Source of the DNA: a virus
Lineage: Duplodnaviria > Heunggongvirae > Uroviricota > Caudoviricetes
Direction: 5' to 3' (one strand)
DNA: 30,405 nt
Virus record (IMG/VR): IMGVR_UViG_2778261453_000018
Shown: one piece after another, positions 18,001-30,000 of the stretch
Position numbering within the stretch: the first letter of the stretch is position 1
How the letters are laid out: every line of letters begins with the position of its first letter
Program-made: the position numbers

Positions 18001-21000
18001 CTGGGCTTTGAGCGAATGCCGGATGATGAGGATGGCTTCATGGTGTTCAGGATAGCGGTCTGACTGCTACAGTTTTCATCATTGTGTTTAAACCAACATT
18101 GTAATTCACATTCTGACCCTGCTCCGGCAGGGTTTTTTGTTATCCAGGGGGCCATTATGGGTGGAAGTAAAGGCGGTGGTGATACCAAAGTAAAACCAAC
18201 AGCAGCGCAAATAGCACAGGAAGAAGTGGCCTGGAAAGGGTGGCAGGATTACAAAAATATCCTCCGCCCGGCTGAAGATAACTTCATGGAAAAGGTCGAT
18301 GACCTTAACAGTGAGCAGCAGTACGACAATATCGCTGGCACAACAAATCTTGGTTATCAGAAACAGTTTGGTGAAGCGCGAAGGGAGCTGGCGGGTAATC
18401 TTGCTCAGTCCGGTGTTGACCCGTCCAGTGGTCGCTTTAACGCGGTAATGAATGCGAACCAGAGTGATCAGGTAACCGGGCAGATTGACACAACCACACG
18501 GGGGCAGGTATCGCAGGCAGATAAGTATGTTGCCGGGCTACAGGATGTTGCCGCTCTCGGTTCAGGTCAGAAGGCGGATGCGTTACAGAGTTTTAACTCG
18601 CTGGCAGACAGCAGTCTGGCAAAAGCTAAATCGGACGCACAGGCTGCGTTTACGAAACAGCAGGGGCGAGCCTCTCTTGTTGGCGCTGGTTTGGGTGCGG
18701 TAGGTGCATATGCGATGCATAAGGCTGGTGGTAGCGGAGGAAGTGGCGGTGCTAAAACACCTGGCACCGGCGCTAATGCCATTCAGCATCAGGCTCAGAA
18801 CTGGAGACTGTGATTATGGAGTACGGTAAATACGAAACACTTGCGAGATACGGTTATACCGGAGCTGCCCGCCCTCAGGGGGACTGGCAGACATCCGCAG
18901 CGCTGACCCGCCAGCAATACGACGACTGGCGCACCAGATATTTACCCCGTGTAGCAAGGCTGGCTGACCTTGGCGAGAACAACAGCCTGATGAATGCACA
19001 GCTTGCCCGGGTGGGCGGCCTTGCCACTTCCAGTCTCCGTACAGCGCAGATGGCGCAGGATAACCAGATGGCGAGATACGGGGTAAGCCGCCCGGATAAT
19101 CCCGACAGTAATACGCTGGGGTTACGTAATGCCCTGGCAATTGCTGGCGCGAAAAATGGTATCCGTGAAGCCGAACAGGATCGCCAGATGAACATACTGA
19201 CGGGGGCTTCTGCACCTGCAAGACAACAACTGAGTGTTGGCGGTCAAATGATGACAGCGTAAGGGGGAAGATATGGGGTACGGCTTACTGGATATTGCGA
19301 ATCAGTCACGGCGTGAGGCATTACAGGGAATAAGTGACGCAGACCGACGACGTGAAGAAATTGAGGCTGCGAACAAACAGATGGCGGCGCAGCAGAAAGC
19401 GCAGAACAAGCAGAATATCGGTACGGGCATTGGTACGGGGGCGGCTATTGGCGCATCCGTTGGTGGTCCTGTTGGCGCTGTTGCTGGTGCAGTAATTGGC
19501 GGCATTGCAGGCGCTTTGTTTTAAGGAGTGGTGAATGAGCGGATTTGCACAGGGGTTACTTGCCGGATTCAGCACTGTTGACCAGGCAATGACCCGTCGT
19601 AAGGAGCTTGGTTTGCGAGAAGCACAGCTTGCTCAGCAACAGAAAAATAACGAGCGCGATTTTGAATTTGCGCAGTCTCAGTTTGAACATAATAAAGACG
19701 TTGATCAGCGGAACTTTGATTACAGAGCCAAAGTTGATGACCGCAATTACGCACTGCAGGAAAGGGAGTTTAACGCCAACCAGAATTACCGGAATGCGTC
19801 GCTGGGGATGGAACAGCAACGACTCCAGTTGCAGAAATACAACCAGCGACGGCTTGAGTATAACGATATGATTGCCCATAGCCAGCCACTAATGGAAGCG
19901 CTTGGAAAAGCAATTGAGGCTGGCGATCAGGAGGCTGCAACGCGTCTGTTCGGGCAGCTGCCAAAGGGACATCCATTAATTCTTATGTCAAACGAAGGCT
20001 ATGCAGCGAAAGCGGGTCAGGCCGTGATCAACCTGCAAAAAATCTTTGGTGATAAGCCGGACATGGCGATCGATTCGCTGAATACCCCGGAAAATCTCGA
20101 TGTGCTTTCCGGCGTGTTTGCCCCTGAACTACAACAGCGTATTGGCATGCCTGATTCAACCGGGGAAAAAACGATAAAAGAGGCCAGGATTGGCAGTATC
20201 GTACCAGCGCAGCAGGAAGGGTACGTACTTATTGGCCTTGATCTCACATACAGCGATGGCTCCACCGCGCATAAACCTGTAACAGAATACGGCAGTGCGC
20301 ACCCTGATGATCAAACCGTGCTGGCGATACCCGTTGATAAGGCTATCGCTCAGGTCAGGGATCGCAGCAAATTTGCAGAGATATCGAAAAATTATGGTTA
20401 TTTTATGCCGAAGCAGCAGGGACTTTCTCTGAAAGAGCTTCAGAAGGGGGCCAGCAACGTAGCGGCGGACGCGATCAAGAATGGCGGTAATGCTCAGGCT
20501 GCGGTGGATGAATATTATGCTGCGACTGGTTCACAACCGCATCAACAGAAAATTCAGCAACAAAAACTTCAGCAACAGGTTATCAACTGGGCGGGAGATG
20601 ATCCTGATAAGCTGTCATTTGCCAGAAATGTAGCGGCCCGTCAGCCTGAAATGCTGGAGCCTCAGAATCAGAAATTGCTGGAGAACGGGTATGCGAATTT
20701 TCTCCGTATTCAAAAGGCCAGGGGGGAACAGGCCAGAGATGAAAGTGCTTCATCTGCATCTCAGTTTATCCGTGGACTGAAACAGAATTACGCCCAGTAA
20801 TTCACGATATTCCATTAACACCATTTCCTGATGCCCGGCCATTGTGCCGGGTTTTTTTATGGAGTCTGTATGGCCTATTCAGAGGAACAGCGTCCTGAGG
20901 CGCAACTCGGTAACCAGAATCGTAACAGCCTGAACATTCAGCAACCCGGCGAAACTGACAGCTATGAAGCATTTTTCTCTGATCCGAATCGCTGGAAGGA

Positions 21001-27000: not shown

Positions 27001-30000
27001 CGGTGTGGTGGATGCCTGGCAGAACGCCTACCGTTACTACGTTCCCCTGAAAGGTCAGGATGTTGACGGTGTGGTGTCACTTCCCCGTACAGGTAAGGGC
27101 TTCACCATCGGCGGACGTGAAAGCAGGCAGGCCATGGGGCGTGCATCCCGTGCACAGTCTCCGTCCACTCAGGCGATACAGGACCTGAGCGAATCGCTGA
27201 TCCGCCATCGCAAAAACGAAGTGGGTAACGCCTTCCTGAAACTGGTGCAGGATAATCCCGACAAGGATTACTGGCAGGTATTCACCGATGACAGACCGGA
27301 TACCATGCGGACGATTGCAGAGCGCAAGGACCAGGAAACTGGTGAAACCATTCGCGAAGTTGTCGAACGCCCTGTACCGATGGCAATGATGGCAGACCGG
27401 TACTTCACCACCAAAAAGAACGGCAAAACGTACTACATCAAACTCCATGATCCGCGCCTGATGCGTGCGATGAAGAATATGGGACCGGAAACCAGTAACG
27501 CCGTAATCCGCACGCTGGGGAAAGTTAACCGCTTCCTGGCAACGGTGAACACGTCGTATAACCCGGAATTCCTGGTCAGTAACTTCATCCGTGACGTGCA
27601 GACGGCGGTGATGAACCTGAAGGCGGAGCAGGGAAGGAGCGACGGCAAACTGAAAGGGCTGGATAACTTATCCGCACTGGCTGTGGTGAAAGACAGCCGG
27701 TCTGCCATGTCTGCCGTATACGCCAGTCTGCGTGGTAAAACCCTCACGGGCAACGGTGCGCAGTGGCAGAAGGTGTGGAAAGAGTTTGTTGAGGACGGAG
27801 GTAAAACCGGCTGGTTTAACATGGGTGACCTTGAAGGCCAGCAGAAGGAAATGGATCGCCTTGTATCGCTGGCGAAGGGAGGATGGAAAGGCCAGAGTAT
27901 CGGTGCATGGAATTCGTTCCTTAACCTGGTCGAGGATGCCAACGGCGCGGTTGAAAACGCACTGCGTCTGTCAGCTTATAAACACGCCCGTGATGCCGGT
28001 TTGTCACGCCAGCAGGCGGCGTCTCTTGCCAAAAACATGACGGTGAACTTTAACCGTCGTGGTGAGCAGGGGGCGCTGATGAACTCGCTGTACATGTTCG
28101 CCAACGCCAGTATTCAGGGAACGGCAAATCTGGTGAGAACGCTCGGACATCTTAATGGTGAGGGACCTTTACTGGAGCGCCTTCGCTGGAAGAATCTGAA
28201 TGTTCCGCAGAAAATCGCGCTTGCCGCTGTGGGAGCAGGTTATCTGCTTGGCTCGCTTAACCGCAGCGTGGCGGGTGAGGATGATGACGGGGTTAACTGG
28301 TATGACAAGGTGCCGTCTCATGTGAAAGAGCGTAACCTCGTCATTATGAAATCGGTGTTCGGGGGCAAGGCCGGAGAGTACTGGAGTATTCCTCTGCCTT
28401 ACGGGTACAACGTTTTCTTCCTGCTCGGGCATACCGCTGAAGGTGTGGCGGCGGGTGACCTGACGGCGTCCCGTGCTGCCGGTAATGTTGTTGGTGGTGT
28501 GCTTGGTGCATTCAGCCCGATTGGCAGTGAGACGTCGGAAACACTGTCCGGGGCATTGCTGAAAAATGCAGCGCCGACCATTCTGCGTCCGTTTGCGAAC
28601 CTTGCCATGAATGAAAACTTCATGGGGGCGCAGATTTACCAGGAGAACATGCCGTTTGGTACACCAAAACCTGACAGCCAGCTGGGAAGACGTTCAACGC
28701 CAGAAGCGTACAAGGCGTTTGCATCCTGGCTGAATGCGTTCTCAGGTGGCAGCCAGTACCGTCCCGGCGCGGTGGATATCACACCGGAATCGCTGAAATT
28801 CTGGATTGACTATATCTCCGGAGGGACAGGGCGCTTCATTTCCAAAACCACGGATGCGGCGGTGAAATCGCTGAATGGTATTGATATACCGGAGCAGCAG
28901 GTGCCCTTCCTGGGGAAAATTTCAGGTGAGGTGATGCCGTATGCTGACCAGCAGAAGATGTACGACCGGATGACAGAGGTTGCGCAGTATCACGCAGAGC
29001 TGAAGAGTCTGACCGGTGCAGAAAGAACGGCGTTCATTGACGAGAACAACGGAAAATTGTCGATGAACGGGCTTATGCAGGATACCCGGAAGAGACTGAA
29101 GGATTTGCGTAAACAGCGTGATGCCATTTACGCCGACAGTACTCTCAGTCTGGCGCAACAGTCGGCGATGGTGAAATCGGTTGAGCGGGATATGAAAATT
29201 GCCGTGGATCGGTTTAACCGCGAGTACAACAAAAAAGTGGGAGTGGAGTAAAGAACATGCCCCGTACGGAAGTGCGGGGCATGCTTAACGGGATGTGTAC
29301 ATAAATGGGTACTGATATGACGATTATTTTGGCACTTTATGTATTTAAATCAATGACTTAATACTTACATTCATTATATCCATTTAACTAAGAGGACAAT
29401 GCGGCATGAGTATACCCGCTAATGGACTGCGGGGTAAGTACGCTGCCGCTCGATTGCTTAAACCCTCGCCATTTATGCTGGTTTTTTATCATTTTTCTTA
29501 ATGTTTTCCGCACGTTCTGCTTTTTGGCGTGCTTCTGCTTTACGCTTGTTGCTCATGTCGTTACGAATCTGTGCATGACTCATTAACGCGAAGATAAAGG
29601 TGCCGCCGCAGATGTTCCCCGCTAAAGTAGGTAGTGCGAAGGGCCAGATGAAATCGCTCCAGTGCAGCGTGCCGTTAAACACCAGATAGAGGATTTCAAC
29701 AGAACCGACAACGATGTGGGTGGTGTCACCCAGTGCAATAAGCCAGGTCATCAATATAATCACCACAATCTTTGCCGCACCCGCAGCAGGAAACATCCAA
29801 ACCATAGTGGCGATCAGCCAGCCGGAAATGATCGCGTTGGCAAACATCTCGCTGGGGGTGTTCTTCATCACATCCATGCCGATTTTGACAAATGCATCGC
29901 GAGTTTCTTCATTGAAGATAGGCATATATTCAAATGCCCATGCAGCAATACCTGTCCCGAGAATATTACCCAGCAGCACGACGCCCCATAATCGCATAAG

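Follow-up and report, generated by a model that had tools for sequence, protein, structure and literature searches.

The domains of polyvalent proteins, multi-domain chains of late or virion context, were defined by Iyer, Burroughs, Anand, de Souza and Aravind in 2017 (PMC5512222), with a zincin metallopeptidase (MPTase) as hub and LPD38 as a phage-only domain. Known ejected proteins include gp15 and gp16 of phage T7 and gp50, gp51 and gp52 of phage N4. For phage DEV three ejection proteins have been described as an outer-membrane pore, a periplasmic tunnel and a giant that crosses the inner membrane and binds the tunnel by its C-terminal domain; the DEV study also names cysteine suppression as a conserved hallmark of ejection operons and attributes it to transit through the oxidising periplasm. 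Closest to the protein considered here is gp47 of the Shiga-toxin (Stx) phage phi24B, which a preprint found in purified virions, noting its LPD5, LPD1, LPD38 and MuF-C domains, did not see in the cryo-EM map or in negative-stain data and proposed to be a capsid-internal ejection protein (bioRxiv 10.64898/2026.04.10.717836). Here we analyse its ortholog of 2793 amino acids (aa) encoded in IMG/VR record IMGVR_UViG_2778261453_000018, a viral stretch of 30,405 nucleotides whose full length we call the window; residues are counted from the ATG at position 20870. An earlier note on this DNA had proposed a polyvalent protein ejected from the virion, a candidacy supported by the Pfam domains and by the virion proteomics of the ortholog. 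Our analysis makes it probable that the gene encodes a giant internal ejection protein of a 933W/Sp5/phi24B-type prophage, polyvalent in class and built as a delivery chassis with cargo.

The region is a short-tailed Stx-type prophage of the Sepvirinae. The window sequence matches a prophage of Escherichia coli ERL05-1306 with 100% identity, and the giant product is 100% identical to WP_029793689.1, which RefSeq names 'LPD38 domain-containing protein' (or LPD5). At the DNA level the whole gene shares 97-98% identity with phi24B gp47, 933W L0134, VT2-Sakai/Sp5 orf71 and the equivalent in many Stx-converting podoviruses. Of 5426 complete E. coli genomes 427 have the gene; full-length copies with the frame intact occur in 423 of the 5426 and in 186 phage records, and the family phrog_616 is matched along the entire protein. 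The three named orthologs agree with it in length (2793-2794 aa), in Pfam domains and in being encoded at the end of the late genes. What sets the window copy apart is its setting, a prophage beside yfdC in a New Zealand food isolate, together with minor mosaicism at aa 151-200, 501-550 and 1801-1850. A long co-directional late operon ends with this gene; ahead of it lie terminase, portal, an N4-gp56-family capsid protein, adaptors, fibres, nozzle, needle, bor/lom-type morons and small proteins; no stx genes were seen within the window. As the earlier note had it, this is by far the largest gene of the window, its product being about four times longer than that of the second-longest open reading frame (ORF), the 714-aa portal, and it closes a co-directional cluster of Gly-rich and glycine-zipper genes: the preceding products are Gly/Ala-rich and one of them, of 83 aa, has Gly-zipper Pfam matches. 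The same note called the function unassigned, which is true only in part in view of the RefSeq label and of the ejection role already discussed for phi24B (bioRxiv 10.64898/2026.04.10.717836). Gene, domain class and likely role are already in databases and literature, and to that extent our work confirms existing knowledge; what we add are the zincin folds, the RNase-like fold of MuF-C, the family-wide placement of the C-terminal module, the absence of cysteine from five consecutive genes and the operon parallel.

That the giant protein is a virion-packaged polyvalent protein we hold to be very probable. The earlier note had suggested virion proteomics, and such data exist for the 98% identical gp47 of phi24B: with 10,962 peptide-spectrum matches (PSMs) it had the second-highest spectral count, outranked only by the capsid protein (bioRxiv 10.64898/2026.04.10.717836), and its peptides map to the N-terminus, the first zincin domain, the C-terminal module and the C-terminus. 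Scaled to 12 portal subunits, the batch sample corresponds to about 20 gp47 copies per virion, a crude figure with an uncertainty of at least a factor of 2-3. Two relatives, Bcep22 gp75 and JC1 gp69, are also virion-associated. In the E. coli phage PTXU04, knock-down of the LPD38-only protein PTXU04_00025 impairs infection, this protein being needed for efficient infection. The window protein further resembles the polyvalent proteins of Iyer et al. (PMC5512222) in combining several unrelated domains in one chain, in its HExxH zincin with a downstream acidic ligand, in its late/virion gene location and in sharing the zincin MPTase hub, MuF-C (PBECR), LPD1, LPD5 and LPD38.

A second line of evidence comes from composition and gene order. 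The giant protein has no cysteine in 2793 aa (P ~4e-10 given how often cysteine occurs elsewhere in the window proteins), and the five genes that end the late operon (window 18157-29251; products of 218, 148, 83, 421 and 2793 aa) have none in 3663 aa, compared with 7.7 per 1000 in the remaining 16 window proteins. Cysteine is likewise absent from 106 of 132 giant homologs, and from T7 gp15 and gp16 and N4 gp50, gp51 and gp52, whereas most of the other proteins checked from T7 and N4 do contain it. We consider the cysteine-free five-gene block a probable ejection operon. Its four upstream members are the counterparts of phi24B gp51 (218 aa), gp50 (148 aa), an unnamed 86-aa protein (83 aa here) and gp48 (421 aa), of which gp48 gave 1634 PSMs in phi24B virions, peaking at the expected size, gp51 523 and gp50 129 (bioRxiv 10.64898/2026.04.10.717836). 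The 148-, 83-, 421- and 2793-aa genes are consecutive on the plus strand after the needle gene and the morons, and the order and sizes 148/(83)/421/2793 aa mirror N4 gp52/gp51/gp50 and T7 gp14/gp15/gp16.

The comparison with these systems extends further. N4 gp50 and DEV gp71, the virion RNA polymerases, are also giant and cysteine-free, are encoded by the last gene of the structural operon and carry a zincin-type motif; cysteine-free proteins of ~150 aa and ~400-650 aa precede the giant in N4 and DEV (gp51/gp52; DEV gp72/gp73) as they do here, and the capsid protein of Stx phages belongs to the N4-gp56 family, with T=9 as in N4. Unlike the N4/DEV giant, the window protein has no RNA polymerase domain and no detectable similarity to it; Stx phages use the host RNA polymerase, and the cargo would be enzymatic effectors instead. 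T7 gp16, acting with gp14 and gp15, is the largest of three consecutive ejection proteins, is cysteine-free and is encoded after the tail genes, but it has 1318 aa with an N-terminal lytic transglycosylase, and the window protein shows neither a transglycosylase nor similarity to it. The small neighbours gave no homology to T7 or N4 ejection proteins by phmmer. The preprint sets gp48 aside as a contaminating 'transcription factor' (bioRxiv 10.64898/2026.04.10.717836). This dismissal looks doubtful because gp48 is abundant, cysteine-free and placed where a periplasmic-tunnel protein is expected, and its position, size and lack of cysteine make the 421-aa protein (19535-20800) a candidate for that tunnel, comparable to T7 gp15 and DEV gp72, to which it showed no sequence similarity. 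The best 120 gp48 homologs are all E. coli relatives at 80% identity or more, too shallow a set for a profile against DEV gp72 or T7 gp15.

The middle of the protein holds what we interpret as cargo. Of the Pfam domains typical of polyvalent proteins four were found, LPD5, LPD1, MuF_C and LPD38, each exceeding its cutoff (positions in Table 1). The Pfam match to LPD5 covers aa 1051-1200 (E = 6.5e-45), the conserved alignment block begins at about aa 925, and the AlphaFold2 model of the module has a predicted local distance difference test score (pLDDT) of mostly 85-95. LPD5 and the zincin that follows it, zincin-1, nearly always co-occur in relatives. The catalytic-looking motifs mentioned in the earlier note are present as two HExxH sequences at aa 1284 and 1551, one in each of two zincin domains. 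Zincin-1, with the motif HEWFHSLD, matches NCBIfam CLCA_X (Lenart et al. 2013; NF041907) almost from end to end (model 3-245/250, E = 7e-45) at 153 bits, below a curated cutoff of 260 that was set for stand-alone proteins of ~260 aa, and on its sequence it is best described as a domain-level relative of the CLCA_X zincins. Since the match is almost complete, the stretch that Pfam calls LPD1 (1361-1440) forms the C-terminal portion of the zincin-1 peptidase; this differs from Iyer et al., where LPD1 is a separate domain. All 43 aligned homologs with a zincin-1 domain keep His1263, H1284EWFH1288, Asp1291 and Glu1382, and these residues fit the phage-type MPTase clade with its strand-2 His and an Asp three residues past HExxH (PMC5512222). 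In zincin-2 the HExxH...E arrangement is kept across the homologs that have the domain, and zincin-2 is the most frequent partner of the C-terminal module (39 of 132 relatives). Both zincin domains are intact, with anthrax-lethal-factor/MtfA-like folds in the models: in the fold comparison they resembled lethal factor, MtfA and the Pro-Pro endopeptidases (PPEP), not the M15/M23 cell-wall peptidases, and minimal zincins (TTHA0227, Acel_2062, projannalysin) stood lower in the match list.

The third cargo element, MuF-C, belongs to the MuF-C/PBECR class of predicted RNases, with a Pfam score of 64 bits against a cutoff of 27.6. Its fold is predicted to be RelE/BECR RNase-like, RelE/BECR RNase toxins being matched along nearly their full length in the fold comparison. 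The preprint describes a 'MuF-C metallopeptidase' that digests peptidoglycan. This description appears mistaken and we set it aside, the fold being BECR RNase-like and the metallopeptidases being the two HExxH domains elsewhere in the chain. The profile searches proposed in the earlier note were fruitful in part: a zincin (CLCA_X type) and a MuF-like domain were found, an ArdC-like domain, a lytic transglycosylase and a DNA nuclease were not, whole-protein and segment profile scans giving no ArdC-N, SLT/lysozyme or DNase domain at E <= 10. Nothing resembling a structural tail or needle protein, which would have spoken against the note's proposal, was found either.

Behind the cargo lies a C-terminal module of about 900 aa in which the LPD38 match (PF18857) scores 164.5 bits against a cutoff of 27 and whose AlphaFold2 model has a pLDDT of 81 and a predicted TM score (pTM) of 0.77. 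Searching aa 1895-2793 with phmmer against 1.84 billion representative proteins returned 8655 proteins at E 1e-3 and 4772 at 1e-30. Among the best 150 of the 8655 the module always lies at the extreme C-terminus and is nearly always matched whole; those of the 150 that are complete proteins have ~1800-5181 aa. The ~900 aa around LPD38 behave as one constant C-terminal module, a second point on which our description departs from that of Iyer et al. A Pfam scan of 13 relatives found LPD38 in all 13 and widely varied N-terminal cargo: Sbno-type helicases, ResIII, ART-PolyVal, InPase, ddrB-ParB, PBECR5, RadC, SLT (2 of 13), GGDEF, Kinase-PolyVal and HATPase. Seven Stx-phage orthologs give the same picture at close range. 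Each 50-residue window of the C-terminal module is at least 94% identical among them, and mosaicism is restricted to the N-terminal and middle parts: aa 151-200 fall to 66-74% identity, phage 86 has 48-66% at aa 850-1150, Lyz12581Vzw has 53-82% at aa 1700-1900, and phage P27 carries a 74-aa insertion within zincin-2. The pattern that these ortholog identities suggest is an invariable part for delivery to which exchangeable cargo is attached.

Among described proteins, the 'DarB-like' giants Bcep22 gp75, JC1 gp69 and those of the Ralstonia GP4-like type, as well as PTXU04_00025, have the C-terminal module in common with the window protein (26-28% identity over 82-97% of its length) and likewise stand last in the virion module. 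JC1 gp69 carries an LT-like domain, an adenine methylase, an SNF2-type helicase and LPD3, and the window protein has none of these. The label 'DarB-like antirestriction' was considered for the window protein and rejected, the N6-adenine methyltransferase and SF2 helicase being absent and the phrog_10089 match covering only aa 2351-2681. On a Gracilimonas chromosome (L010 5316-13999) a small island encodes a 1332-aa LPD38 protein alongside an integrase, an AlpA-like regulator and several small genes. No genes for capsid or tail are seen in its vicinity, and the island may be a satellite-like element with its own ejection protein. In an Amphritea metagenome-assembled genome (L009 4052-12946) a 981-aa gene consists of the C-terminal module alone and abuts an integrase, an excisionase and early genes, and has the appearance of what a deletion left of a prophage in which, as in this window, the giant gene came last among the late genes.

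Residues ~170-440 of the Gly/Ala-rich N-terminal module recur N-terminally in some related giants (phrog_37568 match at 170-439), tblastn matches at aa 181-408 occur in Vibrio phages, in giant genes that also share the C-terminal module, and 10 of 132 giant representatives have this stretch, each time at aa ~150-450. The glycine zipper at its end is the second most hydrophobic 19-residue window of the protein and overlaps weak glycine-zipper Pfam matches at aa 406-433. The linker that follows is rich in Pro and charged residues, as the earlier note had described, and gave no family match in the Pfam segment scan; the disorder also claimed there is suggested by composition. Three LP[AS]P motifs lie in the linker (aa 740, 812 and 828; window 23087-23374), and one might purely speculate that they mark self-cleavage sites, the zincins resembling Pro-Pro endopeptidases.

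Taken together these results lead us to the following proposal. The protein would be synthesised late, as a 2793-aa cysteine-free polypeptide, and packed in multiple copies inside the T=9 head. Upon release of the tail needle it would be expelled through the tail with the four small upstream cysteine-free proteins. Its two conserved ends, the N-terminal Gly/Ala glycine-zipper module and the ~900-aa LPD38 module, would form the delivery chassis, with a role in packaging, possibly in head targeting, and in building or docking to a trans-envelope conduit comparable to that of T7 gp16 and the N4/DEV virion RNA polymerase. The exchangeable enzymatic middle (LPD5-zincin unit, small second zincin and MuF-C/BECR RNase-like domain) would reach the cell, where the zincins would most likely cleave the polyprotein itself or host proteins and the RNase-like domain would most likely attack host RNA early in infection. 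An essential role in DNA delivery, as part of an ejectosome, seems at least as likely as one in countering host defences.

Several observations weigh against this proposal. Exit from the capsid and entry into the cell are steps that we infer, for the window protein and for its close orthologs alike. For the C-terminal module neither structure nor sequence comparison with the PDB gave a meaningful relative, and we infer its role entirely; PDB sequence searches with the whole giant protein and two profiles returned only low-complexity, poly-Q and coiled-coil noise. The giant protein gave no phmmer match at E <= 10 to T7 gp11-16 or N4 gp50-59, and therefore the analogy with T7 gp16 and the N4 virion RNA polymerase is one of position, composition and possible function, not of family membership. 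There is no classical transmembrane helix in the giant protein (top 19-residue hydropathy 1.2), and Pfam scans detected no peptidoglycan hydrolase domain in it, SLT being present in some relatives. Finally, gp47 PSMs in phi24B fell mostly in the top gel slices, with very large forms dominant (bioRxiv 10.64898/2026.04.10.717836; the supplement gives per-slice counts at the protein level), and therefore extensive autoprocessing before ejection is not evident.

A broader version of the proposal can be put forward only tentatively. One possibility may be that the LPD38 module and the N-terminal zipper module serve a very large class of ejection proteins of podoviruses as their universal delivery chassis, docking on the periplasmic-tunnel protein (here gp48) and crossing the inner membrane, with the middle as a free cargo bay and the Stx cargo, two proteases and an RNase-like toxin domain, acting in the first minutes of infection.

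The mosaic cargo could also be read differently. It is possible, if doubtful, that the protein is an effector devoted to anti-defence, on which the earlier note laid its emphasis, or to host takeover. It would then be injected solely to neutralise restriction or other immunity, or to reprogramme the host, and like P1 DarB would not be needed to deliver DNA into hosts that lack defences. The polyvalent framework predicts exactly this (PMC5512222), the cargo region is mosaic and diverges fast between otherwise near-identical Stx phages, and relatives swap in ART, methylase/helicase, ParB-nuclease or RNase cargo and carry the 'DarB-like antirestriction' annotation. However, neither Pfam nor NCBIfam nor PADLOC found a methyltransferase, helicase or DNA-mimic domain in the giant protein, PADLOC giving 0 matches, and ArdC is missing as well; the PHROG match behind the 'DarB-like' annotation is confined to the shared C-terminal module. 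The invariance of that 900-aa module, together with the essential LPD38-only protein of PTXU04, points to a core function in infection.

Such a core function might be purely structural. On this reading, which follows the proposal of the preprint on phi24B (bioRxiv 10.64898/2026.04.10.717836), the protein would belong to the ejectosome and breach the cell wall, the zincins cutting peptidoglycan cross-links or envelope proteins and no domain acting in the cytoplasm. Position and cysteine-free composition are those of T7 gp16 and N4 gp50, the SLT lytic transglycosylase domains of relatives make envelope breaching a theme of the family, and the giant protein itself shows no other peptidoglycan hydrolase. 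We nevertheless find this unlikely: the BECR/RelE-like RNase type of MuF-C has no obvious periplasmic substrate, the zincins are not of the cell-wall type, and the ART, helicase, GGDEF, kinase and ParB cargo of relatives is directed to the cytoplasm. Very improbable is a scaffold or pressure filler retained within the T=9 head, which holds ~10 kb less DNA than that of N4: abundance in virions, at the copy number estimated above, and absence from the cryo-EM map would suit it, but the strict avoidance of cysteine across the family, shared with proteins proven to be ejected, would be difficult to account for if the protein stayed in the head, intact catalytic sites are kept over wide divergence, and emptied phi24B particles show no residual internal density (bioRxiv 10.64898/2026.04.10.717836).

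The limits of the gene agree with those given in the earlier note, start and length being borne out by the ribosome-binding site, RefSeq and the leaders of the orthologs. The ORF listing of the window shows a single open frame at 20831..29251 (+), 2806 aa counted from its first ATG; the gene itself runs from ATG 20870 to the TAA ending at 29251 (2793 aa plus stop, 8382 bp), and ~2800 uninterrupted sense codons rule out a chance origin. ATG 20870 is almost certainly the true start, because a GGAG ribosome-binding site (20861-20864) stands 5 nt ahead of it, a terminator-like hairpin with a T-run lies between this site and the earlier ATG, the earlier ATG is unconserved and RefSeq places the start in the 100% identical genome at 20870. 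The upstream ATG at 20831 was rejected for its lack of conservation: it is ATA (Ile) in Stx2_8243 and Lyz12581Vzw, and the leader of phage P27 differs. Some database records start at this ATG, giving 2806-2811 aa.

Table 1. Positions of the giant gene, its modules and the features just upstream, in window coordinates.
Feature	Position	Strand	Residues	Remarks
Four upstream cysteine-free genes	18157..20800	+		218 aa, 148 aa, 83-aa glycine-zipper, 421 aa; candidate partner ejection proteins
Terminator-like hairpin and ribosome-binding site	20833..20864	+		GCCCGGC-CATTGT-GCCGGGT + T7, then GGAG; from sequence and terminator scan (20833-20852)
Giant polyvalent protein gene	20870..29251	+	2793 aa	ortholog of 933W L0134, VT2-Sakai orf71, phi24B gp47
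N-terminal Gly/Ala-rich module	20870..22189	+	1-440	
Glycine zipper	22094..22144	+	409-425	G409-x3-G413-x3-G417-x3-G421-x3-G425, perfect; end of N-terminal module
Pro/charged low-complexity linker	22190..23626	+	~441-919	from composition
LPD5 module	23627..24412	+	~920-1181	helical subdomain, then alpha/beta subdomain
Zincin-1 metallopeptidase domain (CLCA_X type)	24413..25189	+	1182-1440	LPD1 is its C-terminal part
Zincin-2	25298..25744	+	~1477-1625	small second metallopeptidase-like domain; H1551EIIH1555 and E1607
MuF-C / PBECR domain	25952..26386	+	~1695-1839	predicted RNase-like effector
Constant C-terminal module	26552..29248	+	1895-2793	mostly helical; LPD38 at aa 2476-2681 (nt 28295-28912)

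On both sides the gene is flanked by potential hairpins. The one with the T7 run (window 20833-20859), strong and terminator-like, lies inside the late operon, directly 5' of the ribosome-binding site of the giant gene, and read-through would need Q antitermination. A second GC-rich stem-loop, without a T-run, stands directly 3' of the stop codon (29258-29290). The host gene yfdC starts ~220 bp downstream on the opposite strand (29252-29472 lie between), and the giant gene abuts the end of the prophage. On the E. coli K-12 map argW presumably adjoins yfdC; Rfam and tRNA scans of the window found no family and no tRNA, hence no sign of the argW remnant that was expected beside yfdC. Further upstream, at 9857-11707, the ORF listing gives one 616-aa Gly-rich collagen-like fibre ORF. 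RefSeq gives for the same stretch of the identical genome a truncated N-terminal pseudogene and a separate C-terminal coding sequence, and VT2-Sakai has a single 645-aa fibre; an annotation problem or repeat-length variation is possible.

Stx-converting phages create Shiga-toxin-producing E. coli, and the giant protein takes up ~14% of their genome and is among the most abundant components of their virions. A chassis with a cargo of intact protease and RNase-like domains offers concrete targets for mutagenesis and would help to explain how infection is established. The role of the invariant C-terminal module and of the cargo is a question for the whole family and not for this window in particular. 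If the idea of a universal chassis were correct, a polymorphic-effector system would be built into the machine that ejects the DNA, and the Stx cargo could influence host takeover, superinfection and the lysis-lysogeny outcome of medically important phages.

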